Positions 4,006 through 61,862 are shown, counted from the stretch's first letter. The stretch is DNA of 64,000 nt from Candidatus Eiseniibacteriota bacterium (GCA_043819135.1 JBDRFG010000033.1:741-64740), one strand, 5' to 3'. Program-made: numbers and translations. The notes: generated by a model from the sequence alone, not told the origin.

Positions 4006-4240
4006 AGGGAGGTCGGGCGGCTCCCGCCCGACGGGGACGTGGTGGACGGTTTCAGCTCGTTAGCGGTCGGCGGAATGCGCCGGCCGCTGTCCGCGTACGC
4101 CTCCGCCGGCTCATCAGGCCCGCCGGGCCGCCCGCCCCGCCACGCCGCGCGGCCGTACCACCGCCCCGCCCAGCCGAGCCCTTGCACCGACGGCCGCTCG
4201 TCTATATGGTGGGATCCATCATCGTCGGCGCGGAGGACAC

Positions 4241-5848: not shown

Positions 5849-5870
5849 TCCGGGTGGATTCCCGGGGCGT

Positions 5871-6653: not shown

Positions 6654-6704
6654 GTGTCTGCTCCGGATCGCGCCGCGGCAATGGAGACCGCGCGCTTCAC
6701 CCGA

Positions 6705-9043: not shown

Positions 9044-9216
9044 GACCCCGGCCGCGTGTGTCTGACTGTGCGTGTGGTTCAGGCTGTGACATCTCAAACC
9101 GCGGCGCGGGGACCTCCAAGGGGCCCGGCGCGGCGGCTACGTGCATTCACGTTGCGCCATCTGAGTCCCGACGAAACCCTGAGCCGGGACGGCTCCAACC
9201 AGAAATGAGGAAGACT

Positions 9217-10227: not shown

Positions 10228-10344
10228 GCGCGGCAGCACCGTCCTCCCCCGCAGTGCGATTCAGCCCAGTCGAGGGCTGCTCGAGCACCAGGGGGAGGGC
10301 CGGTGACACCGCGCCGGAGTGTGCGGCAGAGACTGAGGCCAACG

Positions 10345-11244: not shown

Positions 11245-11307
11245 CGCACGAGCCGTCCGTCCTGAGCCGCGGCCACGTCCGCGGCCACGGACACGAAGGA
11301 GAACCGG

Positions 11308-36025: not shown

Positions 36026-36070
36026 CCAAAATGGTCTTCCGGCTCTTTTTGTTCCTGGAGGTATTCTCCG

Positions 36071-37282: not shown

Positions 37283-37296
37283 GAGGAGCGGGCATC

Positions 37297-44099: not shown

Positions 44100-44825
44100 A
44101 TGACCGGCGAAGCTGACAAGACTCGCGCGGCCGGCCCTATGGGCGGGTCTTCCGCCATGAGCAGGTTGGTCCGGGCGGTGGTTGTACTTCTGGTAGTCGG
44201 CTGTTCCACGAGCGCATCCGCGGACTCCGACGCCGGATTCACGATCGCTCAGCTCAAGTACCGCGGCGGGGGCGACTGGTACGCCAATCCTACGGCACTT
44301 CCGAATCTCCTCGCCGGGATCTCGAGCCGCACCGACCTTGAGGTCGCGCGGAGACCGGCCACCGTCGCGCCCGATGACGACGAGCTCTTCCTTTACCCGA
44401 TGATACACATGACCGGCCACGGCAGGGTCGCGTTCACCGATGAAGAGGCAGACGTGCTGCGCGAGTACTTCGAACGCGGCGGATTCCTCTGGGCCGACGA
44501 CAACTACGGGATGGACCGCCATTTCCGCGCCCAGCTCGACCGGGTCCTGCCGGGCGCTCCGCTCGTCGAGCTGCCGTTCGATCACGAGATATTTCATTCC
44601 TTCTACGAATTCCCGGAGGGGCTTCCGAAGATCCACGAGCACGACGGAGGCCCGCCGCACGGGTACGGCGTCTACCTGGATGGCCGAATGGTCGTCTTCT
44701 ATAGCTTCAACACGGACATAGGTGACGGACTGGAGGACGGCGAGGTCCACAACGATCCGCCCGAGAAGCGCGAGGCCGCGCTCAGGATGGGCGTCAACAT
44801 CGCCGTCTACGCACTGTCCCACTGA
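44100..44825 (+). CDS. DUF4159 domain protein
   Basis: FTIAQLKYRGGGDWYANPTALPNLL...LFLYPMIHMTGHG...GGFLWADDNYG matches my recollection of DUF4159. An alternative start at ATG 44157 gives a lipobox-like VVGC. Confidence 0.65.
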   Translation: MTGEADKTRAAGPMGGSSAMSRLVRAVVVLLVVGCSTSASADSDAGFTIAQLKYRGGGDWYANPTALPNLLAGISSRTDLEVARRPATVAPDDDELFLYPMIHMTGHGRVAFTDEEADVLREYFERGGFLWADDNYGMDRHFRAQLDRVLPGAPLVELPFDHEIFHSFYEFPEGLPKIHEHDGGPPHGYGVYLDGRMVVFYSFNTDIGDGLEDGEVHNDPPEKREAALRMGVNIAVYALSH

Positions 44826-44871
44826 CGGGACGGCGGCTGGCGGAAGCCTCGACCTGGTGGTCGGCGGTCCG

Positions 44872-44895
44872 CACTCCCCCCCCGGGGGGGGAGTG
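44872..44895. repeat. perfect 24-nt palindrome CACT-C8-G8-AGTG
   Basis: Read directly from the sequence. It is intergenic, 47 nt after the DUF4159 stop and 23 nt before the next start. Confidence 0.95.
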
Positions 44896-44917
44896 AACGG
44901 GACTGTCGGGAGACGAA

Positions 44918-47900
44918 GTGAACGCGCACAACGCAGAGCATGGACACAGGGAGCTTGTTCGCCGCATCAGCGCGGCGGGCGACCGATGGAAGAGACAGAC
45001 GGCGCTGGTCGGACTGCTGTGTCTTGCCTCGGCAATGATCGGCGCGCTGACGCTGCTCGTTGTCCTCGAGGCCAGGATTGGCCTGCCGCCTGACGTCCGC
45101 GTCGCGTGGCTCGCTGGAGCCCTGCTGTTACTCCTCGCCGGCGCCTGGTTCTGGGTGGCCCGCCCTCTCGTGCGGTACGTCGATGCCGTGGATCTCGCGG
45201 CCAGGGTCGAGGAACGGCTTCCGGAGCTGGGCGAGCGTCTGGAATCGTCGGCGGAACTCTGGGAGAAACGAGGCACGGGGCGTCACGGATACTCCATCGA
45301 GCTGATCGACGCGCTGATACTGAGGACTGTCGCCGAGGCGGCCGGGGTGGAGTTCCGCATCGCGCCGCGCCCCGAGCACACACGGCGCGTCGTAAGGGTT
45401 TCGGTGGGCGTGATACTGGTCGCGGCGGCGGGGCTGGCCGTGTTGGGGTCGAGCCTTCAGCCGGCGCTCGCGCGGCTCAAGCACCCTCTCCATGTGCCGG
45501 ACGCGCCCGTCGTGCGGTTCCGCGTGGAGCCCGGCAACGTGACGCTCGTCTCAGGCGACGACCTGAATGTGACGGCCTCGATAGAAGGAACGTTCCGGGG
45601 GCTCCCGACGCTCGCGTTCGAATTCGACGGTGAGGCGCCCTCCACGAGGGAGATGACGCCCAGCGAGATCATGGCCGTAAGGGAGACGGGGTTCCCGGTA
45701 AAGGCCACGCTGTCGGACATCCGTTCGCGCCTGGTCTACTCCGTGATGGCCGGTGGCCACTCGTCGCAGACGTACACCGTCTCGGTCGTGGAGTACCCGT
45801 TCGTCACGAACATTCGTCTCGACTACGAATTCCCCCGATACAGCGCGCTCCTGCCGCGAACGGTCGATGAGAACAGCGGCGACATCACAGCGCTTCGCGG
45901 CACGAGCGTCGGCGTGACCGTCACGGCGAGCAAGCCCATCGCCAGCGCGGAGTTGGTCGTGGACGGCGGCGACAGGATTCCGATGTCGAGTCTGTCACCC
46001 CGTTCGTTCGCGGCGACCGTCACTGTTCGAACCGATGTCGGCTACTCCATTGAGCTGGAGGACGCCGACGGCCTCGCGAACCCTGACCCCCCGAGGTACT
46101 CCATCGTCGCCATCCGCGACGAGCATCCTCTCGTGAAGATCGTCCAGCCCGGCGCCGACGGCGAGGCGCCCAGGGGCATGGTCCTCCCGGTCGTCATGTC
46201 TGCCATCGATGACTACGGCATCTCGACCCTGTCGCTTCGCTATTCCCTCGAGGGTTCTTCGGAGGAGGGAATAGTCAGACTGGAAGAACCGGGCGTGGCC
46301 GGACCACGTGAGCTCATCCGAGAGACGGCCTGGGATCTCTCCGAGACGGGTCTTCTCCCGGGGCGCTCGCTCGTCTACTACGCGGAGGTCACCGACAACG
46401 ACCAGGTGATGGGCCCGAAATCCTCGCGCAGCGAAAGCTACATCGTCCGCTTTCCCTCGATGTCGGAGCTCTACAGCGACGTCCAGGGCGAGCACGACGA
46501 CATCGCGTACGAACTGGGCGAGCTGCTCGAGGAACAGCAGGTGCTCAGAGAGCAGTTCGAGGACATGCAGGAGGAGATCAGAAGCGAACCCGAGATCGAT
46601 TGGCAGGAAGAGGAGCAGGTAAACGATGCGCTCGAGCGGCAGGAGGAGCTCGCGGATGACGTCGTGCGCATGGCGGACCGGCTGAGCGACCTCACGGATT
46701 CCATGAGCGAGACGGACCGCATCACCATCGAGACCATTGAGAAGGTCGACGAGATACGGAGGTTGATGGAAGAGGTCGCTACCGAGGAAATGCGGGAACT
46801 CCTCGAGTCCATCCGCGAGGCGATGGAGCGGGTGAGCCCAGAGGATGTCAGCGAGGCGATGGAGAACCTCTCCATCACCCAGGATGACTACCTCAAGCGA
46901 CTCGAGCAGACGCTCAACCTGCTCAAGCGCGCGAAAGCCGAGCAACAACTTGCGGACATCGCGGACCGCGCGGAGGATCTAGCCGCCCGTGAGGAACGAC
47001 TGGCTCGCGAGGCAGAGCAGTCCAGCGGCGACTCCCAGTCGGGGGCGCTCGCCGAGGAACAGCAGAAGCTCCAGGACGAGTTGGACAAGCTGAAGGAAGA
47101 CCTCGCGCGGGCGATCGAAGAGATGAGCAGGGTCGACGCCTCGGCCGCGCGCGAGATGGCGGAGGCCGCCGCGGAGATGGAGGCCTGCAAGATTTCGGAG
47201 AAGATGGAGCAGGCGCGATCTAAGCTCGCAGAATCCAAATCGTCCGAGGCGTCCGAGATGTGTCAGTCGGCGGCGAACGACCTCATGGCGCTCTTCACCA
47301 GGCTCTCGTCCTGCCAGGGCGGCATGTCCTGCAGTCTCCAGAAGCGCGACCGCGAAGCGACGCTCAGGGCCATCGATGAACTCCTCGGCGTGTCGTCGGA
47401 GCAGGAGGAGATAGTGACGGCGGTCGACCGGCGCCGCAGGATCCCTCGGCCCGAACTTGTGGAACTCGTCGCCAAGGAGGCTGACCTCGTCGATGCGATG
47501 TCTGCCATAGCGAACCGAATGTTCCAGGTTTCGAAGGACTCCTTTGTTATCGATCCAGGTATCTACCGCTCGTTCGGCGTCGTGCAGATGGCGATGACCA
47601 GGGCCGCGTCGCACATCGCCTCCGGGGGGTCGGCGGCCGGTCACAAGGAGGCGCGCGCCGCGCTCGGCAGCGTCAACGCGCTCATCGTCAGTCTCCTGAC
47701 GTCCAACCGGAGTTCGTCCGGGGCCGCCGGCGGCGCGATGAATCAGTTGATGCAGCGGCTCCAGCAGATGGGCGAAGAGCAGTCGAGGCTCAACGACATG
47801 ACCGAGGCGCTCCGCCGACAGATGGAGCAGCTCGGCATGAGCGCGGGAATGGAGCGCCAGCTCGCGGAGATGAAGGGCCTGCAGGAGAGTATTCTCGATG

Positions 47901-48307
47901 AGGCCAGGCGACTGGCCGAGGAGTTCGGAAGCCGCAGGGAGATCCTGGGCAGGCTGGACGACACCGTCGAAGAGATGGAGGGTACGCTCGAGGAGATGGA
48001 GAGAAGCGGAGCGTCCCAGGAAACCGTAGATCGACAGAAGAGGATCCTCTCCCGTTTGCTCGACGCGCAGCGGTCGCTCAGGCGTCGGGACCACACACGC
48101 GAGCGGACATCCGAGACCGCGGAGAACTACGTCCGAACGGGACCCGACGAGCTGTCGTCCGACGTCGAGAGGGTCACGCAGGAACTCCGTGAGGACCTTC
48201 TGCGGGCGATGCAGCGCGGGTATCCGTCCGAGTATCGCGAGTTGATACGCGCTTACTTCCGTGGGCTGACGAACGACGTCGCTGGCGAGGGGGAGGTGGC
48301 GCCATGA
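44918..48307 (+). CDS. large membrane-anchored protein with long acidic coiled-coil C-terminal half (DUF4175-like)
   Basis: 1129 aa. GTG start. Two N-terminal TM helices, a beta-rich middle and ~550 aa of E/R/L-rich heptad-like sequence. The family name is from memory of DUF4159 neighbourhoods. Confidence 0.55.
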   Translation: MNAHNAEHGHRELVRRISAAGDRWKRQTALVGLLCLASAMIGALTLLVVLEARIGLPPDVRVAWLAGALLLLLAGAWFWVARPLVRYVDAVDLAARVEERLPELGERLESSAELWEKRGTGRHGYSIELIDALILRTVAEAAGVEFRIAPRPEHTRRVVRVSVGVILVAAAGLAVLGSSLQPALARLKHPLHVPDAPVVRFRVEPGNVTLVSGDDLNVTASIEGTFRGLPTLAFEFDGEAPSTREMTPSEIMAVRETGFPVKATLSDIRSRLVYSVMAGGHSSQTYTVSVVEYPFVTNIRLDYEFPRYSALLPRTVDENSGDITALRGTSVGVTVTASKPIASAELVVDGGDRIPMSSLSPRSFAATVTVRTDVGYSIELEDADGLANPDPPRYSIVAIRDEHPLVKIVQPGADGEAPRGMVLPVVMSAIDDYGISTLSLRYSLEGSSEEGIVRLEEPGVAGPRELIRETAWDLSETGLLPGRSLVYYAEVTDNDQVMGPKSSRSESYIVRFPSMSELYSDVQGEHDDIAYELGELLEEQQVLREQFEDMQEEIRSEPEIDWQEEEQVNDALERQEELADDVVRMADRLSDLTDSMSETDRITIETIEKVDEIRRLMEEVATEEMRELLESIREAMERVSPEDVSEAMENLSITQDDYLKRLEQTLNLLKRAKAEQQLADIADRAEDLAAREERLAREAEQSSGDSQSGALAEEQQKLQDELDKLKEDLARAIEEMSRVDASAAREMAEAAAEMEACKISEKMEQARSKLAESKSSEASEMCQSAANDLMALFTRLSSCQGGMSCSLQKRDREATLRAIDELLGVSSEQEEIVTAVDRRRRIPRPELVELVAKEADLVDAMSAIANRMFQVSKDSFVIDPGIYRSFGVVQMAMTRAASHIASGGSAAGHKEARAALGSVNALIVSLLTSNRSSSGAAGGAMNQLMQRLQQMGEEQSRLNDMTEALRRQMEQLGMSAGMERQLAEMKGLQESILDEARRLAEEFGSRREILGRLDDTVEEMEGTLEEMERSGASQETVDRQKRILSRLLDAQRSLRRRDHTRERTSETAENYVRTGPDELSSDVERVTQELREDLLRAMQRGYPSEYRELIRAYFRGLTNDVAGEGEVAP

Positions 48308-50148
48308 GGCACGTGGCCACAGGACCGCTTGTTCGCGTGCTCGTGCTGACGCTTGTTGTTGCGGTCGCGTTTCCGACGGCGACGGGCGCGAAGCCCGCCG
48401 AGGGCGAAACTCCCGTCGAAGGAAGCATCCAACGGGCAAGACAGGCGGCGGCGGTGGGCGCCGTCGACGAAGCCATAGAGATCTACATGAAGATTCTCGA
48501 GGACGATCACGGCAACGAACGTGCGTTCTGGGGACTCGTCGGTCTGTACTCATCGGCCGGGATGGAAGAAGCGCTGATAGCGCTCCTGGAGCGGCGTGTC
48601 AGCGAGTACCCTTTCGACACGCAGGCGAAGATGGAGCTGGGCCAGGCCCACGCGAAGACGGGGAATCACGACGTCGCGCACGGGCTCTGGATGGAGGTGC
48701 TCGGGCACGAGAGGGCCGACGTCGGTCAGTACTCGGACATCGGTGCGCTGGAGATCAGACACAGAATGTACGAGCAGGCGCTCGAGACGTTCATGACCGG
48801 ACGGGGAGCTTTCCGCAGCGAGTCGCTCTTCAGTCAGGAACTGACGCAGATCCACACGGCGCTCGGTGACTTCGGCTCGGCGATGGACGAGTGTCTCATA
48901 ACCGTAGACCACCACGGGGGCGCCGTATCGTGGGCAACCAACCGCATCGAGCTCATGATCGAGGAGGGAGCCGGGCGCGGCGACATCCGCGCGAAGATGG
49001 CGGCGGTCGCGGAGGACCGGGAGGCGACGGCTGCGGAACTCGGTCTGGCCGGGAGCGTCTTTCTCGTACTGGATCTGCCCGAGCGCGCGCTTGCGGCGTT
49101 CCTGCGGGCCGACGAGATCTCAGGAGGCCAGGGAACGGAACTTCTGGAATACGCTACCATCCTCAGCGACGACGGACGCAAGGACGAGGCGCGTGACGCG
49201 TATCTGATGGTGGTGGAGCGCCACCCCGGCACGTCGAGTGGGGCGCAGGCCGGGACAGCGGCAGCGCGCCTCATGGCGGAGGCGGGTGACCCCGCCGGCG
49301 CCGTCGCCGAGCTGCGGCAGGTCGCCGACTCGTTCGAGGGTTCGGCCAGAGGGGCGCAGGCGCTTTTCGAGGCGGCGAAGGTGGAGCTGGACGTCCTCGA
49401 TGATCCCGAGGCGGCACTGGCCACGGTCGCGGAGCTCCGCGGCAGGTTCGGTGAGCGCGCTCGCAGGATGAATGACGAGGTGACGCTTGTCGAAGTGGAC
49501 GCCTACATGAAACAGGGGCGGCTCGACGAAGCGTACGAGCGGTCCGCGGGCCTGAACCGCGACGATGTGCCGGACGACATCCGTGAGAGCGCCATGTTTA
49601 CGGGGGGCTTCGTCTCATTCCTGAAGCACGACTACGAGAAGGCGATCGAGGAGTTCCGCGTGATGGTGGAGGCCAACGCGGCGAGCGTGCTCGTCAACGA
49701 TGCCCTGCGTCTCATGCTCGTCATCGCGAACGCTCAGGAGGCGGGTGACGTCGAACCGGTTGATCTGTTGGCGGACGCGCACGCCGCCAGGCTGGCTGGC
49801 GACGCGGAGTCGTCACGGCTTCTTCTTCAGGAACTCGCCGGCAGGAACGACGGTGAGGCCGTGAAGACTGAGGCGCTTCTGCTGTTGGGGGCGGCCGCGA
49901 CGGTGGCCGGCGACCCCGGGCGGGCCATCGAGTATTACGACAGCGTCACCGCTAGTACGGAAGGAGTAACTGCCCGCGCCGAGGCCATGATGAGAAAGGC
50001 CGACATTCTCAGATTGACGCTGGGACGGACGCGCGAGGCCTCGGACCAGTACCTCGCCATTCTCGAGGACCTCCCTGCCAACACGCTTTCGGGTGAGGCC
50101 AGGCGGAAGCTGGACAGGCTGAGACGGGGGGAGGGAGTCGAGGAGTGA
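48304..50148 (+). CDS. tetratricopeptide-repeat protein, secreted
   Basis: ATGA overlap with the upstream gene. Signal peptide (...VAFPTATGA). Repeated A/L/Y/G TPR-like helical hairpins. Confidence 0.65.
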   Translation: MRHVATGPLVRVLVLTLVVAVAFPTATGAKPAEGETPVEGSIQRARQAAAVGAVDEAIEIYMKILEDDHGNERAFWGLVGLYSSAGMEEALIALLERRVSEYPFDTQAKMELGQAHAKTGNHDVAHGLWMEVLGHERADVGQYSDIGALEIRHRMYEQALETFMTGRGAFRSESLFSQELTQIHTALGDFGSAMDECLITVDHHGGAVSWATNRIELMIEEGAGRGDIRAKMAAVAEDREATAAELGLAGSVFLVLDLPERALAAFLRADEISGGQGTELLEYATILSDDGRKDEARDAYLMVVERHPGTSSGAQAGTAAARLMAEAGDPAGAVAELRQVADSFEGSARGAQALFEAAKVELDVLDDPEAALATVAELRGRFGERARRMNDEVTLVEVDAYMKQGRLDEAYERSAGLNRDDVPDDIRESAMFTGGFVSFLKHDYEKAIEEFRVMVEANAASVLVNDALRLMLVIANAQEAGDVEPVDLLADAHAARLAGDAESSRLLLQELAGRNDGEAVKTEALLLLGAAATVAGDPGRAIEYYDSVTASTEGVTARAEAMMRKADILRLTLGRTREASDQYLAILEDLPANTLSGEARRKLDRLRRGEGVEE

Positions 50149-51422
50149 AACGTCCGATGGCTGCTTCGGTCGCCCTGACGCTTTGTGCCGCCACGCTCCT
50201 GCTCGCCAGTGCGGGCGCGCACGGCGCGGCCATGATCCCGATGGACTTGGCCCAGACGGACCACCTCAAGTCGTACGGCGTCGCCTACTGGGCGCTCGAG
50301 AGGGGATACCGCGTCGAGTGGTTGCTCAACTACCGGAGCGGGTCTTTCCTCATCCTCGACGGGCTCGCCGACGTGAGATCGGAGTGCCGCTACAGAGGCG
50401 TCTCGTGGGAGGAGCCTGACGGAGCCGCGCTTGCTCGGATCTACCAGCAGGTTGAGGAGGAGAACATGGAGGTCGTTCTCCTGGAAAAGGCGCCCGCCAT
50501 CGCGCTCTACGCACCCGATAACATCCAGCCCTGGGACGACGCCGTGATGCTCGCCCTGGAGTACGCGGAGATCCCCTACACCATCATCTGGGACGCGGAT
50601 GTGCAGTCCGGTGGTCTGGAAGCGTACGACTGGCTTCATTTGCATCACGAGGACTTCACCGGCCAGTACGGCAAGTTCCACGCTTCCTTCAGGAACGCCG
50701 ACTGGTACAAGGAACAGAAGGTCTACTACGAGCGTCTCGCCCTCGAGCAGGGCTTCCCGTCGGTAAGTGAACACAAGAAGGCCAGCGCGCTCGAGATCAG
50801 GGAATACGCTCGACGAGGTGGGTTCCTCTTCGCCATGTGTTCGGCCACGGACAGTTTTGACATCGCGCTGGCGGCGGCGGGCGTCGATATCGTCGACGTC
50901 CCGTTCGACGGCGATCCTCCGGAGCCGGGCTACCAGGCCAGACTCGATTTCTCCAGGTCGCTCGCGTTCACGGACTTCAATCTACTGCCGAGTCCAAACG
51001 TATACGAATTTTCCGACATCGACATGACAGAGACGGCCGCCCTTCGACCCGAGGAGATCGACTACTTCACCCTGTTCGGGTTCGCGGCTAAGCACGATCC
51101 CGTGCCCGCGATGCTGACTCAGTGCCACGTCAGCGTGGTCAAGGGGTTCATGGGGCAGACGACCAGCTACAGGCGCAGCCTTGTCAAGAACCACGTCACC
51201 GTACTGGCGGACTACCCCGGGCAGAACGAAGTGAAGTACATCCACGGCAATTTGGGGCGCGGGACGTTCACCTTCCTCGGAGGACACGACCCGGAGGACT
51301 ATCGTCACCTGGTCGGCGATCCACCCACGATCCTGTCGCTGCACAAGAGCTCACCAGGATATCGCCTCATTCTTAACAACATCCTCTTCCCGGCCGCGAA
51401 GAAGAAGGAGCGGAAGACGTAA
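50145..51422 (+). CDS. secreted hypothetical protein (possible class-I glutamine-amidotransferase-like fold)
   Basis: GTGA overlap with the TPR gene. Signal peptide (...LLLASAGAHGA). The FLFAMCSATD nucleophile-elbow-like motif is only a weak impression. Confidence 0.5.
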   Translation: MKRPMAASVALTLCAATLLLASAGAHGAAMIPMDLAQTDHLKSYGVAYWALERGYRVEWLLNYRSGSFLILDGLADVRSECRYRGVSWEEPDGAALARIYQQVEEENMEVVLLEKAPAIALYAPDNIQPWDDAVMLALEYAEIPYTIIWDADVQSGGLEAYDWLHLHHEDFTGQYGKFHASFRNADWYKEQKVYYERLALEQGFPSVSEHKKASALEIREYARRGGFLFAMCSATDSFDIALAAAGVDIVDVPFDGDPPEPGYQARLDFSRSLAFTDFNLLPSPNVYEFSDIDMTETAALRPEEIDYFTLFGFAAKHDPVPAMLTQCHVSVVKGFMGQTTSYRRSLVKNHVTVLADYPGQNEVKYIHGNLGRGTFTFLGGHDPEDYRHLVGDPPTILSLHKSSPGYRLILNNILFPAAKKKERKT

Positions 51423-54404: not shown

Positions 54405-54551
54405 CGTGCATGTAGGGCGGTCCGGACGGTTCAGGCGCGGGAGTCATCACTGCTTGAGCGGGGCGCAGTCTCCTCTGCGGGGGCAGTGTCCCGCGTTCTT
54501 GTTCCGGGTCGGACGGGGTGTGAAGCGCGGGTCGAGACGGAGGGCCGAGCC

Positions 54552-55622
54552 ATGAAGGAGTGCGCGTATCTGCTGGCGGTCGCCATGATACTGACGGGGT
54601 GTGAGGGAACGGACCTCGTCGGGATCGATTCGGCCGACCCGGGACGGCCGTCGCTGCGCCCCCAAGAAGCCACAATGATTCCGATGTGCTCTTCCCTGTA
54701 CAGAATCGGTGGGACGCACGACCCCGACAGCCCGGACTACAATCCCAGCGTGGCAGACACGGCGCTCATGCACGTCCCGCACACGTTCGCCTGGAGCGGG
54801 CGGGACCCCGACGGCCTCTGTGACCCCCTCCTGTTCCGCCATCGCTTGGACGGGGACGCGTTCTCGGAATGGGCGCCCGACACAACGAGCACGATCGACG
54901 GCCTGGCGGACGGTGGCCACGACCTCGTCGTGCAGCCCGGATGTCCGGGTGCTCCCGGGATCGAGGACCAGTTCGGCTTCGTCGTCAACTTCGACCCTGA
55001 CAGCGAAATAGTCGAGCCGCCGGAAGAAAGTGGAACGCCGACGATTCGCGATGGAGACACGTTGTGGGTCAGAGTAGTCGCGTGGGACAGAGAGGAACTC
55101 GAGGGCGTCGGCGGCGGGATCGCGCAGGTCGTGGTAGAGATGGGCGAAGACGTGCTGACGTTCGTCCCTCCTGATGCCGCGGAGTGGTGGTGGAGTTCGA
55201 ACGCCGACCCGGCGAGCGGCCACTATATCGAGAGCCGGAATTCGCCACAGGGCGGCAACGCCCTCCATCTGATCCGCGTCAACGCTCTTGATGTGGATGG
55301 CCGGTGGGAGGAGAACGGGGAGTCGTACATGTTCTGGTACAACTTCCCGCCCACGGTCATTATCACATTCCCATCCGAGAGCGATACGCCCGGGAGCGAC
55401 TTCACGGTCTTGTTGGAAGGGAGCGACCCGGATGGGGAGGTCGCGTTGTTCCAGTACGTGCTCGACCCGGCGTACAACACCTACGAAACAACTGAGTCCA
55501 GCGAAATCTCCTTCGAGGACGTTGCGCCCGGCCCGCACGAGTTCCGCGTCCGGGCACAGGACGCGTCCGGATGCTGGTCGACCACGTGGTCGATTGTCAG
55601 TTTCACGTCGAATGACAGATGA
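54552..55622 (+). CDS. hypothetical lipoprotein with repeated beta-sandwich-like modules
   Basis: Frame of track ORF 54486..55622. ATG 54552 gives MKECAYLLAVAMILTGC (lipobox). There are three modules, each with a (R/S)DPDG / WDREELEG motif followed by a ...GxH.(F/L)xV(Q/R) strand. Confidence 0.6.
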   Translation: MKECAYLLAVAMILTGCEGTDLVGIDSADPGRPSLRPQEATMIPMCSSLYRIGGTHDPDSPDYNPSVADTALMHVPHTFAWSGRDPDGLCDPLLFRHRLDGDAFSEWAPDTTSTIDGLADGGHDLVVQPGCPGAPGIEDQFGFVVNFDPDSEIVEPPEESGTPTIRDGDTLWVRVVAWDREELEGVGGGIAQVVVEMGEDVLTFVPPDAAEWWWSSNADPASGHYIESRNSPQGGNALHLIRVNALDVDGRWEENGESYMFWYNFPPTVIITFPSESDTPGSDFTVLLEGSDPDGEVALFQYVLDPAYNTYETTESSEISFEDVAPGPHEFRVRAQDASGCWSTTWSIVSFTSNDR

Positions 55623-55634
55623 GCGTGAAGCGCC

Positions 55635-56954
55635 TCAGTGGTCGCAGACGTTCTGTCCAGTCTTGAGCGTACCGTCGAGATAGGACTGCGCGACCTCCTT
55701 CGGGTCGGAGCTTGGTGCGCCGACCACGACCTCGATGCCGGCCTGACAGAACAGCTCCTGCGCCCTGCCGCCCATTCCTCCTGCTATCACTACGTGCACG
55801 CCGCGCTCGCTGAGCCACGCGGGAAGAAGGCCAGGCTGGTGCGGCGGCGCCTCCAGGGCGGCCACCACTTCGGCTTCGTTCTCTCCGGACGACTCCTTCG
55901 GCGAGAAGATGACGAACTCCTCGCAGTGTCCGAAGTGCGCGGAGAGTTTCCCGCCGGTGACCGGGATTGCGATTCGCTGTCTCTCGTCGGCCGGCGAGTC
56001 TGCCGCGCCCGCGTTCGAGGGTTCGCCCGCCGGGCTGCTGCTGGTCTTCATGTCCATTATGTCCTCCTGATCAGTTTCGGTCTCAATGCGGTTAAGGACC
56101 GCGGACGCCGCCTTGGAGAAGGCCTTAGCGCCGGGGCTTCCGCCGGCAAGGAACGGGCCGAGCGCTCCCGCGTCGCACGCCGTGACGAACTCCGGATCTA
56201 TCGGTATGCTGCCCAGGAATGGCACGCCGAGCTCCTCGGCCATCGTGGCTCCGCCTCCTGCGCCGAAGACATCGACCCTCGTTCCGCAATCTGGGCACAC
56301 GAATCCGCTCATGTTCTCTATGACGCCCAGTATTGGCAGCTCGAGCTGTCTGGAAAATCCTATCGACCGCCGGACGTCGTTCGTCGACACCGCCTGCGGC
56401 GTCGTCACAATGAGGGCGCCGTCCGCTCCCTTAATGAGCTGCGCGACGGAGAGAGGTTCGTCTCCGGTTCCAGGGGGGCTGTCGACGATGAGGTAGTCGA
56501 GATCTCCCCACTCGACGTCGCGCAGGAACTGCTTGATGACGCCGTATTTCAGCGGCCCCCTCCATATGACCGCGTCGTCGCGCCCCTGCAGAAGCAGTCC
56601 CATGGACATCACGCTGACGCCTGTCGTCGAGACGACCGGCTGGATGGACCCCTCGGTTCCGATCACGCGCTCCCCCTCCACCCCCAGCAGGCGCGGAATG
56701 CTCGGGCCGTGTATGTCGATGTCGAGCACGGCCACGCTCTTGCCCAGGCCGGCCAGATGAACGGCGAGGGCCGCCGCGACGGAACTCTTGCCGACGCCAC
56801 CCTTCCCGGACAGGACGAGGATCTTGTGTTTGATGCGTGAGAGCCTGCGGGTCAGCTCCTTGTCCTCGGCAGGTTGATGCTTCTCCGTTTCCGAGCTATC
56901 GACCTTCGCGCCGGGTGTCGCCTTGATCTCGTTCCTGTTCTCACTTCCTCCCAT
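55635..56954 (-). CDS. Mrp/NBP35-family Fe-S cluster carrier ATPase fused to a C-terminal NifX/NifB-like (FeMo-cofactor-binding-type) domain
   Basis: Frame of track ORF 55635..57185. ATG 56954 follows GGGAGGA. Deviant Walker A LSGKGGVGKSS. Mrp CxxC box FVCPDCG. The C-terminal ~115 aa (IAIPVTGGKLSAHFGHCEEFVIF...VVIAGGMGGRAQELF) is NifX-like. Confidence 0.8.
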   Translation of the reverse strand: MGGSENRNEIKATPGAKVDSSETEKHQPAEDKELTRRLSRIKHKILVLSGKGGVGKSSVAAALAVHLAGLGKSVAVLDIDIHGPSIPRLLGVEGERVIGTEGSIQPVVSTTGVSVMSMGLLLQGRDDAVIWRGPLKYGVIKQFLRDVEWGDLDYLIVDSPPGTGDEPLSVAQLIKGADGALIVTTPQAVSTNDVRRSIGFSRQLELPILGVIENMSGFVCPDCGTRVDVFGAGGGATMAEELGVPFLGSIPIDPEFVTACDAGALGPFLAGGSPGAKAFSKAASAVLNRIETETDQEDIMDMKTSSSPAGEPSNAGAADSPADERQRIAIPVTGGKLSAHFGHCEEFVIFSPKESSGENEAEVVAALEAPPHQPGLLPAWLSERGVHVVIAGGMGGRAQELFCQAGIEVVVGAPSSDPKEVAQSYLDGTLKTGQNVCDH

Positions 56955-57019
56955 GCGGTCCTCCCGTTTGGGCGTGAGCCCGCTTTCGTCGGCGAGATAT
57001 CGACCCGCGCTCTTGCGCG

Positions 57020-57913
57020 TCAGAGGCCGAGCGTTTTGCTGACGGTGCTCCATAGCTGCGTGATCGCGGTTGCGGCGAGGCCCTCGGAGTGCTCGACTAC
57101 CGAGAGACCGTTTACCTGCGCCTCCGTGACCTCGTCGTCGTAAGGAATGCGTCCGGCCATCGGAATGTCTGAGTCCGCGCACCACTTTTCGATGCTCGCG
57201 GTAGCGTCAGGATTAATATCGTGTTTGTTGATGGACACGGTAACAGGGACACCCAGCTTCTTCGCAACGCCGGCGACCCGTTTCAAGTCGTGCAGCCCGG
57301 ACACCGTGGGTTCTGTGACCAGAAGTGCCAGGTCCGCGCCCGTGAGAGACGCTATGACGGGACAGCCTATGCCGGGAGAGCCGTCTATCAGCGACAGCGA
57401 GAAGTCCCGTTCTCTGGCCAGCGAGGCTGCCTTTGATCTCACTATGGTGACGAGCTTCCCCGAACTCTCCTGGCCTATGCCAAGGCGGGCGTGAACCAGT
57501 GGGCCCAACCGGGATTCCGAGACGGCCCATTCGCCGGTCATCGCGTCCTCCAGACGTATGGCGTCGGAGGGGCACGCGATGACACATGCGCCACATCCCT
57601 CACACGTCAGCGGGTCCACGGCATGGATCGTCCTTGCTGGGGCATCAGCGGGGTCCTTCAGGACGATCGCTTCGAACCGGCAGACCTCGGCGCACCTCCT
57701 GCACTGCATACACTTGTCTATATCGATGGCGGCCACCTTGCTGCCGTGGAAGACCTTCCACCTTGTCATCCTCGGGCTCAGAACGAGGTGAAGGTCGGCC
57801 GCATCGACGTCGCAGTCGGCGACGACCTTGTCTTCGCAGAGCGCGGCGAAGGACGCGACGATGCTGGTCTTGCCCGTGCCACCCTTCCCGCTCAGCACCA
57901 CCAGTTCTTTCAT
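57020..57913 (-). CDS. MinD/ParA-class P-loop ATPase with inserted 2x[4Fe-4S] ferredoxin domain (copy B)
   Basis: Start moved to ATG 57913 (ATGA overlap with the upstream gene's stop). LSGKGGTGKTS. CMQCRRCAEVC and CEGCGACVIACP. Confidence 0.8.
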   Translation of the reverse strand: MKELVVLSGKGGTGKTSIVASFAALCEDKVVADCDVDAADLHLVLSPRMTRWKVFHGSKVAAIDIDKCMQCRRCAEVCRFEAIVLKDPADAPARTIHAVDPLTCEGCGACVIACPSDAIRLEDAMTGEWAVSESRLGPLVHARLGIGQESSGKLVTIVRSKAASLARERDFSLSLIDGSPGIGCPVIASLTGADLALLVTEPTVSGLHDLKRVAGVAKKLGVPVTVSINKHDINPDATASIEKWCADSDIPMAGRIPYDDEVTEAQVNGLSVVEHSEGLAATAITQLWSTVSKTLGL

Positions 57914-58770
57914 GTGTTGGAAGGCTCCCTGGTCCATCCGATCACTTTGTCGACAAGGACGAGCATTGTCTCCCGAAATCCTGGGACGACCTTCGTAGGA
58001 AGGGTCCCGGTCGAGTAGGCCACGGCGACCGCGCGGCTGTTGGGGATCTCGAGCAGAACTTCCAGGTCCTCCCTCCGGCAGTAGTCCAGTGTGTCGGAGG
58101 TCCCTATGTCACATCGGTTGACGACGACACCGGCCGGAACGCCCAGTGCCCTCGCCGTGGCGACGGCGAGCTTCAGGTCGTTGAGTCCGAACGGAGTGGG
58201 CTCCGTAACGAGAAGGACCCTGTCCGTGCCGCGCATGGTCTCGACGGCGGAGCAGGCCGTCCCCGGGGGGGCGTCGAGAATCGAGATCCCATCCTCCGGC
58301 ACCGCCGCCTTGAGCGCGCGGACAATGGGAGTCACTGACTCTTCACCGACGGTCATCTCTCCCCCGATGAAGGAGAGGTCGCCGACGTGGCCCTCGCGGA
58401 TGATCCCCCTCTTCTGCGGTACCTCGATGATCGCGTCTACGGGACAAACGAGAGAGCACGCGCCGCAAGCGTGACACAACTGGGGAAACGTGGTCACCGA
58501 GTTGTTCAGGCATGCGAGCGCATGGAACTGACAGGTCCTGCAGCATTCACCACAGCCCGTGCACTTCTCCTCGTCGATGGCGACCACGCGCACCTCAACG
58601 TCCCGGGTGCGCCCAATCTTCGGCTGGAGGATCAGATGACCGTTCGGCTCCTCGGCATCGCAGTCGATGTAGGTGACCTCCTCGCCTGCCTCAGCGAGGA
58701 GAGACGCCAGGCACGTAGCAACGGTCGTCTTGCCGGTACCGCCCTTGCCGCTGGCGATGGCTAGCTTCAT
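57910..58770 (-). CDS. MinD/ParA-class P-loop ATPase with inserted 2x[4Fe-4S] ferredoxin domain (copy A)
   Basis: Start moved to ATG 58770 (AGGAGA upstream). ASGKGGTGKTT. CTGCGECCRTC and CHACGACSLVCP. Confidence 0.8.
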   Translation of the reverse strand: MKLAIASGKGGTGKTTVATCLASLLAEAGEEVTYIDCDAEEPNGHLILQPKIGRTRDVEVRVVAIDEEKCTGCGECCRTCQFHALACLNNSVTTFPQLCHACGACSLVCPVDAIIEVPQKRGIIREGHVGDLSFIGGEMTVGEESVTPIVRALKAAVPEDGISILDAPPGTACSAVETMRGTDRVLLVTEPTPFGLNDLKLAVATARALGVPAGVVVNRCDIGTSDTLDYCRREDLEVLLEIPNSRAVAVAYSTGTLPTKVVPGFRETMLVLVDKVIGWTREPSNT

Positions 58771-58834
58771 ACCGCTTGAGTTCTCCTTGGATTGCCGGGG
58801 AGGCTCCCGCATGGGGCCTCCCCGGTTCTTCTTC

Positions 58835-59230
58835 CTACTCGTCCTTGTCCGAACCAAGCTCGGTCAGACGCGACCTGGTCGCCTCAAGCGCTGCCGTGAG
58901 ATACTCGGCCTCCGCCCTGAGGGCGGCCGCCTCGTCTCCGGGCGTGAGAGCAACTGGCGGCGCGTAGCCGGCGGGTGGTGCGTAGCCGGCAGGCGGCCCG
59001 TAGGCCTGCGGGTAGGCCGCTCGGCCCCACCCGGGAACGCCCGTGGCATAGTAGCGGTGTCGGAAGCCTCGAGCGCCGCCGTATCCGCCACCGCCCTGTC
59101 CACCAGCTCGTCTGCCGGGACCGTATTCGGATGTCGCGTAGCCGGGAGTCGCATAGCCCGCGCAGTATCCGAGTCCTCTTCCTGTCATCGGTCCAGCGCC
59201 CATCGGTCCGCTTCTGTTTCCGCGTGGCAT
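58835..59230 (-). CDS. DUF5320-like protein
   Basis: N-terminus MPRGNRSGPMGAGPMTGRGLGYCAGY. Gly/Tyr/Pro-rich middle. C-terminal short coiled coil (EAAALRAEAEYLTAALEATRSRLTEL). This is the pattern I recall for DUF5320. Confidence 0.7.
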   Translation of the reverse strand: MPRGNRSGPMGAGPMTGRGLGYCAGYATPGYATSEYGPGRRAGGQGGGGYGGARGFRHRYYATGVPGWGRAAYPQAYGPPAGYAPPAGYAPPVALTPGDEAAALRAEAEYLTAALEATRSRLTELGSDKDE

Positions 59231-59299
59231 TTCAACCTTCCTTCTCCAGGCGTTCGCTCGCCCGGTTCCTGCCGGCAGCCGCGATGCGGCCGGCGGCGA

Positions 59300-59623
59300 C
59301 TAGTGCTCTTCCTTCTTGAACGCTTCGACGGCCTCCGCGACCGTGCCGCCGGTTCTCTCGACGATCCTAATGCCCGCTTGGGTGAGAACTCTCTCGGCGT
59401 TGGGCCCGCAGTGTCCCGTTATGACGGCCTTCACTCCGGAGTCGACGATCTTCTGTCCTGACGCGATTCCTGCGCCTGACGAAGCGTTGACTCCTACCGA
59501 GTTGTCCACTGCCCCGTGCTCGCCCGTCTCCGTGTCGACGATGACGAACCACCCCGCTCGTCCGAACCGCGGATCGAGTTCGCTCGTGAGCTCTCCACCC
59601 TGTGCTGTTACTGCGATCTTCAT
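59300..59623 (-). CDS. NifX/NifB-like (dinitrogenase FeMo-cofactor-binding-type) domain protein 2
   Basis: 107 aa. MKIAVTAQGGELTSELDPRFGRAGWFVIVD...VKAVITGHCGPNAERVL. ATGA overlap with the upstream gene. Confidence 0.8.
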   Translation of the reverse strand: MKIAVTAQGGELTSELDPRFGRAGWFVIVDTETGEHGAVDNSVGVNASSGAGIASGQKIVDSGVKAVITGHCGPNAERVLTQAGIRIVERTGGTVAEAVEAFKKEEH

Positions 59624-60027
59624 CCGTTCCTCCCCTGGGCGCCACCGCGCCCTCTGTGAGTTCTTCCGCGACCGCTACCTCGCCCGAGCCCTCCACAGCA
59701 GCCCGGCATCCTGTAGCGCGGTCTGTCGAGCCTGCCGGCGCTCAAGGCCTGGAGAATCTCCTCTACCTCGCCCGCGATCCACGGCTTGAGAGGCACGCCT
59801 GCGGCCGCGAGCATCTCGGCAAGAGGGCTGGACACCGCCCCGCAGACGAGCAGGTCCAGCTGCAGGCCTGCTATCCGGGCTGCCCGGAGGGGTAGACGCT
59901 GTGACTCCAGCGCCATCTCCTCGTGCAGCGCGCCCGCGGCAGCCCCGGTGTCCACGACGACGATGTGCTCAGCGGTGTCGAGGACGGGTGATACCCTGCC
60001 GTTCCATATGGGAATTCCGACTCTCAT
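59620..60027 (-). CDS. NifX/NifB-like domain protein 1 with Cys/Gly/Arg-rich C-terminal tail
   Basis: MRVGIPIWNGRVSPVLDTAEHIVVVD...LLVCGAVSSPLAEML, then the tail RYRMPGCCGGLGRGSGRGRTHRGRGG. Confidence 0.75.
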   Translation of the reverse strand: MRVGIPIWNGRVSPVLDTAEHIVVVDTGAAAGALHEEMALESQRLPLRAARIAGLQLDLLVCGAVSSPLAEMLAAAGVPLKPWIAGEVEEILQALSAGRLDRPRYRMPGCCGGLGRGSGRGRTHRGRGGAQGRNG

Positions 60028-60041
60028 GGCTCCCTGTCAAA

Positions 60042-60056
60042 GCATCGAGCGTGCCA
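60042..60056 (-). promoter_or_regulatory. sigma-54 (-24/-12) promoter of the NifX-like operon
   Basis: The minus strand reads TGGCACG-ctcg-ATGCT (consensus TGGCACG-N4-TTGCW, one mismatch). It is directly downstream of a sigma-54 EBP gene. The predicted TSS is only about 3 nt before the ATG. Confidence 0.55.
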
Positions 60057-60160
60057 GAGAGGACCCGGTGGCGGGCGATTGTACAAGTGTCTATTGTGTA
60101 GGTAGTTAGGCACGGATGAATCCGCGCACGGTCGGACGGTGGCACCGGCGGCGGATGCGC

Positions 60161-60200
60161 GCGTGCAACTTTCGATTGCCCTGTAGTGCAGAACTGCAAC
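60161..60200. promoter_or_regulatory. two TGCAAC-containing dyads (candidate EBP upstream activating sequences)
   Basis: TGCAAC-tttcg-aTTGCc (60164-60180) and aGTGCA-gaac-TGCAAC (60185-60200). They lie about 110-145 bp upstream of the -24 element. 13 of 16 nt are identical to the palindrome at 61658-61673. Confidence 0.45.
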
Positions 60201-60239
60201 CATGTCTTGACGCTGATTCTGCGGCCGTGATGGAGGGTC

Positions 60240-61622
60240 TTAAGAGACAGAGCGTCTTGGGGGCGCGAGGATCTCGAGGCGCTTCATTTTCCGCCACAGA
60301 GTAGTCTTGTGAATCCCCAGCTCGCGCGCGGTGGCGGCGCGGTGCCACCGGTTGCGCTCGAGCACGGACAGTAGGAACGCGCGCTCGGCCTCAGAGAGAG
60401 ACGTCGGAGTGTCACCTGTGGGTGGAGGAATGGGAAGGAGGTGGGCAGGGAGATGCCGTTTCCGAATGGTGCCGGAACGGCACATGACGAACGCGTGCTC
60501 GATAATATTTTCGAGCTCACGAATGTTGCCGGGATAGTCGTGCATCATCAGAAGTTCTAGAACGTCGGGGGAGACCCCGGAGATCTCCTTCCGCTTGAGC
60601 CGGTTGTAACTCTCGATGAAATGGTCGACGAGGAGCGGGACGTCCTCGCGGCGGTCGCGGAGAGGCGGGAGATTCACGGCGATGACGTTGATGCGGTAGT
60701 AAAGATCGCCGCGGAATTCCCCGGTGGCGACCATGGCGTCGAGGTCGCGGTTGGTCGCCGCGACTACGCGGACGTCGGCCTTCTCCGTCCTGGTAGCCCC
60801 CAGGGGCTCGTAGGTGCCATCCTGAAGAACCCTGAGAAGGCGCGCCTGGAGCGCGGGGGAGACGTCGCCGATCTCGTCGAGGAATATCGTTCCCCCGTGT
60901 GCGAGCGCGAAGCGGCCCACTCTGTCCTTCCTGGCGTCAGTGAAGGAGCCGGCCTTGTGACCGAAGAGTTCCGATTCGAGAAGCGTGTCAGGGATGGCGG
61001 CGCAGTTGACGATAACGAGCGGACGTTCGGCGCGAGGGCTCATGTTGTGGATGGCTCGCGCGACCAGCTCCTTGCCCGTTCCACTCTCCCCCAGGATCAG
61101 GACAGTGCTCTCGCTCTCGGCGATGTCGGGGAGGATCTCGAAGATGCGGAGTACGTCCGTGTTCTTGCTGACCATGTCCTCGAACATGTAGCGTCCGGCC
61201 AGCTCGCGTCGGAGCTCTTCCTCGACGCTGAGGTCCCTGAACGTCTCCACGCCTCCGATGGTCTGGCCGTTGTCATCCTTGAGGAGGGCCGTGGAGATGG
61301 TGACGGGAATGCGCGTTCCATCAGAGCGAACGATGTAGATGGCGCGGTTGATGAGGGGCCTGCCCGTCTTCATGGTCTCTCTCAAGGCGCAGGCGGACTC
61401 GCAGATGCTGGCGCGAAATACGTCGGAGCACTGGCGTCCCATCGCCTCCTCGCGAGAAATGCCCGTTATCTCCTCGGCGGCGCGGTTGAAAGAGCAGATC
61501 CTCCAGTCGGCGTCGATTGCGAAGACCCCGTCCGCGATGCTGTCGAGGATCACGTTCTTGTAGCGTCCGCTCTCGAGTAGCTTCCCGAGGTCGCACGGGT
61601 TCTGTCCCGGGGGATGTGACAT
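60240..61622 (-). CDS. sigma-54-dependent transcriptional activator (PAS - AAA+ - Fis-type HTH)
   Basis: N-terminal PAS domain. Walker A GESGTGKE. ELFGHKAGSFTDA (a GAFTGA-loop variant). RREDV arginine-finger region. C-terminal HTH (ATARELGIHKTTLWRKMKRL). Confidence 0.9.
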   Translation of the reverse strand: MSHPPGQNPCDLGKLLESGRYKNVILDSIADGVFAIDADWRICSFNRAAEEITGISREEAMGRQCSDVFRASICESACALRETMKTGRPLINRAIYIVRSDGTRIPVTISTALLKDDNGQTIGGVETFRDLSVEEELRRELAGRYMFEDMVSKNTDVLRIFEILPDIAESESTVLILGESGTGKELVARAIHNMSPRAERPLVIVNCAAIPDTLLESELFGHKAGSFTDARKDRVGRFALAHGGTIFLDEIGDVSPALQARLLRVLQDGTYEPLGATRTEKADVRVVAATNRDLDAMVATGEFRGDLYYRINVIAVNLPPLRDRREDVPLLVDHFIESYNRLKRKEISGVSPDVLELLMMHDYPGNIRELENIIEHAFVMCRSGTIRKRHLPAHLLPIPPPTGDTPTSLSEAERAFLLSVLERNRWHRAATARELGIHKTTLWRKMKRLEILAPPRRSVS

Positions 61623-61657: not shown

Positions 61658-61673
61658 GTTGCAGAAGTGCAAC
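61658..61673. promoter_or_regulatory. perfect palindrome GTTGCA-gaag-TGCAAC (candidate operator/UAS)
   Basis: Read directly from the sequence. It lies 36 nt upstream of the EBP start codon, in the divergent intergenic region shared with the P-type ATPase gene. Confidence 0.45.
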
Positions 61674-61730
61674 TCACCTTCAGACTACCCCAGTCGTGAG
61701 GCAAGGTCAAGGCGGCGATGGGGCGGGTGC

Positions 61731-61759
61731 TTGACTTCGGGCAGGTGAGCGTCTATGAG
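61731..61759 (+). promoter_or_regulatory. candidate sigma-70 promoter for the P-type ATPase
   Basis: TTGACT-N17-TATGAG, about 100 nt upstream of ATG 61863. The leader contains a GCGCGGCG-N8-CGCCGCGC hairpin (61773-61796). Confidence 0.35.
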
Positions 61760-61862
61760 TCGTTGCTGGAGTGCGCGGCGGTTCGGATCGCCGCGCGCGA
61801 AGATATGAATCCCGCGTGCCCTAACGGGCGGGTGCGCGTCACCGGTCGAGGAGCACTACAGC

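Follow-up and report, generated by a model that had tools for sequence, protein, structure and literature searches.

A probable orp (ORange Protein) gene cluster with a dedicated OrpR-like sigma-54 activator in Candidatus Eiseniibacteriota

Seven open reading frames (ORFs), all on the minus strand, occupy positions 55635-61622 of a 64-kb stretch of Candidatus Eiseniibacteriota DNA (the window, by which the whole of the stretch that was analysed is meant). We consider it likely, with a probability of about 0.85, that this locus is an orp (ORange Protein) gene cluster accompanied by OrpR, a regulator dedicated to it, in which orpR precedes a single co-linear operon, orp7-8-5-4-3-9. An earlier note on this DNA had described the same genes as a metallocluster hand-off machine and had regarded such clusters as unstudied and without assigned function. 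The reading of the parts is right but the system is already known and the claim of novelty is wrong. The orp cluster of Desulfovibrio vulgaris Hildenborough comprises DVU2103-DVU2109 (Fievet et al., 2011, as cited in PMC3897727, PMC6345978 and PMC8359166), and the cluster, its regulator OrpR (PMC8359166) and the fusion protein MrpORP (PMC6345978) have been characterised. Similarly, the activator and the Mrp::NifX fusion had been put forward as new handles on the system, but IHF (integration host factor)-dependent orp promoters (PMC3897727) and the NCBIfam equivalog NF041136 already exist. A search of the literature on ORP, OrpR and DUF5320 found nothing newer than the papers already known. The present analysis establishes the gene content, the MrpORP family membership and the conservation of the regulator's Cys triad, the predicted promoter, the boxes and the synteny. 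The genes, and a hairpin that lies among them, are as follows, each with the evidence for it in brackets.

60240-61622, minus strand: orpR-like sigma-54 enhancer-binding protein (EBP) with PAS, AAA+ and HTH_8 domains, 460 aa (Pfam)
59620-60027, minus strand: orp7-like NifX-fold protein (NifX-like 1), 135 aa (profile comparison)
59300-59623, minus strand: orp8-like single-domain NifX/MTH1175-type protein (NifX-like 2), 107 aa (Pfam)
58835-59230, minus strand: DUF5320 protein in the orp5 position, 131 aa (Pfam, 4.3e-21)
58794-58826, minus strand: G+C-rich hairpin within a 64-nt gap, past the DUF5320 stop codon (folding)
57910-58770, minus strand: MinD-class ATPase A with an inserted 2x[4Fe-4S] ferredoxin domain, in the orp4 position, 286 aa (Pfam and motifs)
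57020-57913, minus strand: MinD-class ATPase B with an inserted 2x[4Fe-4S] ferredoxin domain, in the orp3 position, 297 aa (Pfam and motifs)
55635-56954, minus strand: MrpORP (orp9-like), an Mrp/NBP35 P-loop domain joined to a NifX-type 'Di-Nase' domain, 439 aa (NCBIfam NF041136)

The coordinates and domains of all seven ORFs, proposed by the earlier note as a sigma-54 activator and a six-gene operon, were confirmed, and the profile searches made with each product upheld its assignments: three NifX-like domains (two by Pfam, that of NifX-like 1 by profile comparison), a dicluster ferredoxin domain in both MinD-class ATPases giving four [4Fe-4S] motifs, and the CxxC motif of Mrp. For MinD A, MinD B and Mrp the longest possible ORF extends too far, and the starts that are preceded by ribosome-binding sites lie at 58770, 57913 and 56954. 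Once these are adopted the tight packing that had been proposed is exact: two junctions (59620-59623 and 57910-57913) overlap by ATGA and the others are gaps of 69, 64 and 65 nt. The hairpin in the 64-nt gap has a folding energy of -32.9 kcal/mol (z = -3.84, 13-14 pairs, 0/200 shuffles equally stable) and lacks a U-tract on the operon strand. In relatives the equivalent place after the DUF5320 gene also has a hairpin, of altered sequence, and this element may give the small proteins and the ATPases different levels of expression. A scan of the locus for sigma-70 and terminator consensus sequences found nothing above chance and no terminator following MrpORP. The same co-linear cluster was found in the related loci L001, L002 and L083-L087. 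This arrangement can be taken as more than chance because the seven-gene order recurs in relatives whose proteins are 54-93% identical. In L001 (ERZ25039603 contig_20984, 1.14 Mb) the orpR and neighbouring P-type ATPase genes at 2346-6739 are called in three or four fragments, which look like assembly frameshift errors and not real pseudogenes.

The last gene of the operon encodes the Mrp::NifX fusion. In Pfam this protein matches ParA/NUBPL (2.9e-94) and Nitro_FeMo-Co (3.3e-18), and it scores 497.3 bits against the MrpORP equivalog NF041136, for which the cut-off is 450, over model positions 1-365 of 365. It contains GKGGVGKS (a deviant Walker A motif), CPDC, HFGHCE, PPHQPGLLP and a C-terminal CDH; HFGHCE, PPHxPGxxP and the C-terminal CDH are motifs that have been described for MrpORP (PMC6345978). 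Each of its best 120 database matches (120/120) has the Mrp P-loop domain and nearly all have the NifX-type domain as well, and in the homologue P0085 a NifU domain is fused to the Mrp protein. A pattern scan of genome contigs, in which a generic P-loop pattern was used, returned at least 80 loci, mostly ordinary Mrp genes, with about a dozen instances of the fusion among the matches listed. The fusion had been recorded in 2019 in Firmicutes, PVC, Spirochaetes and Thermodesulfobacteria (PMC6345978 Table S3). In D. vulgaris the corresponding protein, Orp9 or MrpORP, is found at the cell pole and in vitro passes its [4Fe-4S] cluster on to Orp3 and Orp4 (PMC6345978). Downstream of the gene, a 378-aa ORF without a Pfam match (54486-55622, plus strand) is convergent with MrpORP, the two stop codons being separated by 12 nt. 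L083 has a counterpart of this ORF; L001, L084 and L086 have none, and there YbjQ directly adjoins.

The protein encoded at the other end of the locus has the domains of a sigma-54 activator: Pfam finds PAS folds, Sigma54_activat (3.5e-67), an AAA lid and HTH_8. It contains a Cys65-X8-Cys74-X3-Cys78 triad together with Asp67. It has been shown that the PAS triad of D. vulgaris OrpR binds a redox-sensing [4Fe-4S] cluster and that C52, C61, C65 and D/E54 are required for redox sensing (PMC8359166). The triad is kept in the orp-linked EBPs of L002, L006, L024, L083, L084 and L086. The sigma-54-contact loop reads GSFTDA at residue 225; DVU2106 has been listed with an unusual GAFTDA loop (PMC4641369), and most of the orp-linked EBPs keep the loop Asp, L024 having GAFTGA. 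Both the Cys triad and the loop Asp are missing from an unrelated EBP in L021. OrpR has been said to 'seem to be restricted' to Deltaproteobacteria (PMC8359166). The window, the spirochaete loci L006 and L024 and the complete genome L002 argue otherwise, in so far as their predicted proteins can be taken for OrpR.

Both MinD-class ATPases match CbiA and two Fer4 domains in Pfam. GKGGTGKT, a deviant Walker A motif, is present in each and CxxCxxCxxxC occurs twice per protein, at residues 70 and 99 in A and at residues 68 and 104 in B. Their C-terminal segments are moderately amphipathic (muH, the hydrophobic moment, 0.51 and 0.55). Their D. vulgaris counterparts, the MinD-like paralogues Orp3 and Orp4, each contain two [4Fe-4S] motifs (PMC6345978) and bear MinD-like C-terminal helices (PMC8359166, PMC6345978).

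The small proteins required more than one kind of comparison. NifX-like 1 matches Nitro_FeMo-Co with E=1.1e-3, which is under the gathering score. A profile built from seven homologues nevertheless aligned with the NifX-like 2 profile in hhalign with 97.5% probability (E=4.9e-12) and with PDB 1RDU at 8.4e-10, and because of these two matches the assignment holds. The position of its gene, first after orpR and ahead of orp8 (the order given in PMC8359166), suggests that it is the orp7 equivalent. The protein has an acidic core (isoelectric point, pI, 5.0) followed by a 33-aa tail of pI 12 with 12 Gly, 8 Arg and 2 Cys as a CC pair, and the Gly/Arg character of the tail is kept in L002, L024 and L083-L086. 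NifX-like 2 matches Nitro_FeMo-Co at 7.8e-23 and has as its top PDB match 2WFB, the D. gigas ORP (3.2e-18). In D. vulgaris Orp8 is homologous to the orange protein, which holds a Mo-Cu-S cluster without covalent attachment; this ligand is an anionic linear S2MoS2CuS2MoS2 cluster (PMC6345978). The DUF5320 gene lies directly upstream of both MinD-ferredoxin genes, as in the D. vulgaris order orp5-orp4-orp3, and is likened to orp5 by this position. Orp5 itself is homologous to a small [2Fe-2S] protein of the ORP operon (reference 23 of PMC6345978, as cited there). The N-terminal 92 aa of the DUF5320 protein contain 26 Gly, 13 Pro, 13 aromatic residues, 9 Arg/Lys and 1 Cys (pI 10.1) and are followed by an acidic, helical C-terminus; the single Cys is conserved. 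These compositions may be set beside that of IssA, a thioferrate storage protein of Pyrococcus furiosus with a NifX-type IPR003731 domain, in which a tail of 70 aa has 11 Pro, 14 aromatic residues, 15 Gly, 7 cationic residues and 1 Cys (pI 10.7; PMC5524996).

Sigma-54 control by the EBP had also been proposed by the earlier note, and is predicted here from a conserved -24/-12 element accompanied by boxes of dyad symmetry. The boxes were delimited in an alignment (footprint A2) of the orpR-orp7 spacers of loci with close MrpORP homologues (63-93% identity), the same seven genes and the same flanks. The predicted control elements are:

60185-60200, minus strand: predicted OrpR box 1 (upstream activating sequence), GTTGCAGTTCTGCACT, one mismatch to GTTGC-N6-GCAnC (footprint A2)
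60154-60169, minus strand: predicted OrpR box 2 (upstream activating sequence), GTTGCACGCGCGCATC, exact match (footprint A2)
61658-61673, no strand assigned: predicted OrpR box 3, GTTGCAGAAGTGCAAC, a perfect palindrome (pattern match)
60041-60056, minus strand: predicted sigma-54 -24/-12 promoter, TGGCACGCTCGATGCT, with GG at 60055-60054 and GC at 60043-60042
60085-60113, minus strand: A+T-rich patch, a possible IHF or bending site (65% A+T against 20-40% around it)
61682-61710, minus strand: predicted sigma-70-type orpR promoter, TTGACC 61710-61705, a 17 nt spacer and TAGTCT 61687-61682 (conservation)

The sigma-54 element has one mismatch to TGGCAC-N5-TTGCW, and the pattern TGGC(A/G)CG-N4-(A/G)TGCT is constant in five diverged relatives in footprint A2 while its flanks vary. 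Equivalent promoters precede the first NifX-like gene in the spirochaete loci L006 and L024. If GC 60043-60042 is numbered -13/-12, so that its C is at -12, transcription is predicted to start at about 60030. Box 2 is then centred at about -131, 31 bp from box 1 at about -162, and the A+T-rich patch, which is partly conserved in footprint A2, lies between the boxes and the promoter. Exact matches to GTTGC-N6-GCAnC occur at two places in the 64-kb window when both strands are searched, with 0.47 expected, and both (boxes 2 and 3) belong to this locus. Box 3 is placed 8 nt downstream of the predicted orpR -10 element, and a box is found at the equivalent site upstream of orpR in L001, L083, L084, L085, L086 and L087. 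This position suggests autorepression by OrpR. The TTGAC and TAGT blocks of the orpR promoter are conserved (alignment A5). In D. vulgaris orpR is transcribed by sigma-70 (PMC3897727).

The -12 GC is 14 nt from the orp7 ATG (60027), which would itself lie about 3 nt past the predicted start. A GGGAG upstream of this ATG would fall outside the predicted message. The distance from the sigma-54 GC to the ATG is likewise 12-14 nt in L006 (5400-5431), L024 (9534-9563) and the window (60025-60056), with a predicted leader of at most 3 nt. Among relatives with diverged spacers the first 33 nt of the orp7 coding sequence (nt 1-33) are almost invariant as DNA in footprint A2, and these are unstructured when folded.

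Several points weigh against our reading of the locus or bear on how far it can be carried. The orthology of Orp3, Orp4, Orp5, Orp7 and OrpR is proposed from domain architecture, motifs, gene order and descriptions in the literature. NifX-like 2 resembles MTH1175 (6.2e-18) as well as it does ORP, and because this generic relative matches about equally, binding of a Mo-Cu cluster is not inferable. The MrpORP of Desulfovibrio has four N-terminal cysteines that the protein here lacks, and the first Cys of its CXHFGHCE motif is Ser here. Control of the operon through sigma-54 by the adjacent EBP is predicted, from the conserved promoter and boxes. The D. vulgaris OrpR site is GGGCGYRTTTTGCGCCC, of 17 bp, whereas the boxes here are GTTGC/GCAAC dyads of 16 bp, and the A+T-rich patch between boxes and promoter contains no match to the IHF consensus WATCAANNNNTTR with two or fewer mismatches. 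The orp7 message would have almost no leader, or else the promoter has been placed slightly wrongly. Finally, an Fe-S (iron-sulfur) cluster in OrpR, redox control, cluster transfer, complex formation and polar localisation have been shown only in D. vulgaris or D. alaskensis, from which we infer all of the biochemistry in this organism.

The best-supported reading of the function of the cluster, by homology with D. vulgaris, is that its products would form an anaerobiosis-specific metalloprotein complex (the ORP complex) that is activated by OrpR and in which MrpORP matures the MinD-ferredoxin ATPases. OrpR would be expressed from its own sigma-70-type promoter, and its PAS domain would bind a [4Fe-4S] cluster through the Cys triad. 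When the redox potential is very low, OrpR on the boxes at about -131 and about -162 would activate sigma-54 RNA polymerase at the orp7 promoter, and a rising potential would end this activation; box 3 on the orpR promoter probably allows OrpR to curb its own synthesis. The products may then assemble into a metalloprotein complex, as pull-downs place the D. vulgaris ORP products in one physical complex. Within it a bridging [4Fe-4S] cluster on the CPDC motif of MrpORP would supply the four ferredoxin sites of the two MinD-like ATPases, and the single-domain NifX-like proteins may hold anionic metal-sulfide species non-covalently. The hand-off of metalloclusters that the earlier note had proposed fits the transfer of [4Fe-4S] clusters from MrpORP to Orp3 and Orp4 seen in vitro (PMC6345978), and it is the novelty of the idea that did not stand. 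The earlier note had also treated the lack of a client enzyme at the locus as a puzzle. This is weaker than it was made to appear, because chromatin immunoprecipitation sequencing (ChIP-seq) finds the D. vulgaris OrpR regulon to consist of the two orp operons only (PMC8359166) and because the genes for the clients known for MrpORP lie within the cluster.

It could be argued instead that the cluster serves the storage and hand-off of Fe-S or metal-sulfide species in the manner of IssA, effects on cell shape being secondary. Orp7 and the DUF5320 protein, the latter with its basic region and coiled coil, would then hold anionic polymeric metal sulfide, and the MinD-ferredoxin ATPases with MrpORP would shift clusters in and out when the cell is strongly reduced. 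The composition of the Orp7 tail and of the DUF5320 N-terminus is close to that described for the P. furiosus IssA tail, the ligand reported for ORP is an anionic Mo-Cu-S cluster held non-covalently (PMC6345978) and a small protein of the ORP operon binds [2Fe-2S], as far as the citation of reference 23 in PMC6345978 goes. The NifU-like scaffold gene in the L004 cluster and the NifU-Mrp fusion P0085 point the same way. However, the basis for this proposal is compositional only, and basic regions of low complexity are found often. For orp mutants the phenotype that has been published is morphological, and MrpORP's Di-Nase domain passed on its cluster inefficiently in vitro (PMC6345978). We regard an IssA-type machine as unlikely, and its stronger form, in which the ORP system would be a redox-gated store and hand-off machine for anionic metal sulfides, related to IssA in principle and not a cell-division device, as more doubtful still.

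The published hypothesis for the ORP complex is a role in cell division, which its authors themselves call unclear (PMC8359166, PMC6345978). Developed from D. vulgaris, it would make the complex a MinD/ParA-type system for positioning the septum in anaerobes, with the metal clusters as redox switches and not as cargo. This is in agreement with the deviant Walker A motifs of the two MinD-class ATPases and the moderately amphipathic C-terminal segments reported above, and with the morphological defects seen without OrpR or Orp proteins and the polar localisation of MrpORP (PMC8359166, PMC6345978). Neither the cluster nor the scanned ORFs of the window include minC, minE or ftsZ, however, and the hypothesis leaves the dedicated Fe-S carrier and the three NifX-type domains unaccounted for. 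This too seems improbable as an account of the whole. An accessory module for trafficking of iron-molybdenum cofactor (FeMo-cofactor), serving a nitrogenase or nitrogenase-like enzyme whose genes lie elsewhere in the genome, might be suspected from the three Nitro_FeMo-Co (PF02579) domains and from the best NCBIfam match of the EBP, which is NifA at 355 bits, far under the cut-off of 529. A survey of gene neighbourhoods recovered the seven-gene set in relatives but no nif genes in their flanks, and nifHDK, nifEN and nifB are likewise not found among the scanned ORFs of the window. The NifX-like proteins group with the MTH1175/ORP type and not with NifX/NafY, the OrpR targets in D. vulgaris do not extend beyond orp, and the cluster is widespread in anaerobes regardless of diazotrophy (synteny here; PMC6345978 Table S3). 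With no nif context at the locus or in relatives this explanation was rejected, and we consider it most improbable.

To describe the surroundings of the cluster, 47 of the largest ORFs of the window and a partial ATPase ORF were compared with Pfam or NCBIfam. As the earlier note had stated for the nearer flanks, no nitrogenase, hydrogenase or carbon monoxide dehydrogenase (CODH) was found among these ORFs, and Rfam and tRNA scans of the 64 kb gave no matches. The housekeeping genes present include those for Mfd, MetRS, PdxA/PdxJ, HolB, KsgA, SecDF and SurA-like peptidyl-prolyl isomerases; others encode proteins of the MoxR/DUF58/BatA type, an extracytoplasmic function (ECF) sigma/anti-sigma pair, YbjQ and a radical SAM protein. 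The named relatives of MetRS at 68-74% identity all belong to 'Candidatus Eisenbacteria', and below these the identity falls to about 51-53%, which places the host most likely within that candidate phylum or close to it.

Divergent from orpR is the gene for a type-II Ca-type P-type ATPase (start 61863, plus strand). It has a conserved candidate promoter of sigma-70 type, TTGACT at 61731-61736 and TATGAG at 61754-61759 with 17 nt between them, and a conserved G+C-rich hairpin at about 61773-61798 in a leader of roughly 97 nt. The orpR and ATPase promoters thus stand back to back, adjoining OrpR box 3. Sigma-54 control of the ATPase gene was ruled out by this conserved promoter and the lack of a -24/-12 element, and a role as a transporter of Mo, Cu or Fe by the type of the pump, which is not P1B. 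The sequence TGGCACACACCTTGCT at 2576-2591 (plus strand) matches the sigma-54 consensus perfectly. It stands 70 nt upstream of the gene (2662-4005) that encodes a VpsR-like/GGDEF/receiver protein, and its presence suggests a use of sigma-54 elsewhere in the genome.

Among the other ORFs of the window, one of 465 aa (26733-28130, plus strand) joins TatD_DNase (residues 19-269) to radical SAM (289-456), an unusual fusion if this is one real gene. Another, of 661 aa (36031-38016, plus strand), matches PdxJ at residues 424-656 only; its N-terminal 420 residues are without a Pfam match and may be a separate gene or an over-extension of the ORF. MoxR AAA, DUF58 and BatA/VWA genes at 9058-13449 are typical of MoxR/aerotolerance-type (Bat-like) operons, and DUF4159, DUF4175, a TPR protein and a 425-aa unknown at 44100-51422 form a Bat-like set that is syntenic in all close relatives.

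Beyond the close relatives, partial orp clusters were found in Desulfobacteraceae, Spirochaetes, Zixibacteria, Phycisphaerales, Clostridia and archaea. Orp8, both MinD-ferredoxin genes and Mrp travel together across phyla and in archaea despite a varying gene order. Between the NifX/Mrp and MinD-ferredoxin genes the Desulfobacteraceae locus L004 (3951-4622) encodes a 68-aa Gly/Arg-rich Cys-ribbon protein and a NifU-like scaffold, and the spirochaete locus L006 (6204-8292) a metallo-beta-lactamase-fold protein and a radical SAM protein.

As a discovery the locus is minor, since the system, its regulator and the fusion were named and studied between 2011 and 2021 and the fusion is annotated by NCBI. 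Its value is comparative, in that a complete OrpR/sigma-54/orp module is found in a candidate phylum of the FCB group and in Spirochaetes. If borne out, OrpR control, with a near-leaderless sigma-54 transcript and an autoregulatory box, would be ancestral far beyond Deltaproteobacteria, at least in Eisenbacteria and Spirochaetes. The locus would also provide a second, different recognition sequence predicted for OrpR within an unchanged promoter geometry. The likeness of Orp7 and DUF5320/Orp5, which are among the least-studied parts, to pieces of IssA offers a testable idea on ORP function.

The known systems with which the cluster can be compared differ in how much they share with it. Pfam PF02579 is common to the proteins here and to NifX, NafY and the C-terminal domain of NifB, but the closest solved relatives here are of the MTH1175, TM1816 and ORP types and the context is not that of nitrogenase. 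By the criterion of composition Orp7 resembles IssA in joining a NifX-type domain to a basic, Gly-rich and Cys-containing tail, and the DUF5320 N-terminus is near in composition to the IssA tail as it has been described. The Orp7 tail is however shorter (33 aa) and poor in aromatic residues, and IssA-like composition is spread over two proteins.

The D. vulgaris cluster has the same seven kinds of gene, including the PAS/AAA+/HTH sigma-54 activator and the Mrp-NifX fusion, in a deltaproteobacterium where the host here is Eisenbacteria-like. There orp5-orp4-orp3 (DVU2105-2103) and orp7-orp8-orp9 (DVU2107-2109) form two divergent operons on either side of orpR (DVU2106) (PMC8359166), whereas here a single co-linear operon preserves the orders orp7-orp8 and orp5-orp4-orp3, and the divergent neighbour of orpR is the Ca-type P-type ATPase gene in place of orp5. 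Desulfovibrio MrpORP (Orp9/DVU2109, Dde_3202) shares with the protein here the Walker A, CXXC, HFGHCE, PPHxPGxxP and C-terminal CDH motifs and differs from it at the N-terminus, which here is a Cys-free extension of 37 residues. D. vulgaris OrpR agrees with the regulator here in domain order, in the spacing of the triad, in the acidic residue at +2 and in the Asp of the GAFTGA loop, and is likewise encoded beside its only visible targets; the predicted half-site here is another sequence and Fe-S binding is predicted from the triad. Both systems have, here as predictions, a further activator site upstream of orpR and a sigma-70-type orpR promoter, and the first operon gene is predicted to be nearly leaderless here. 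In the D. vulgaris orp1 promoter the EBP site lies at -131, a functional IHF site at -79 and the sigma-54 element at -13 (PMC3897727). Because box 2 here is centred at about -131 and the A+T-rich patch extends from about -83 to -55, the predicted promoter geometry is the same.

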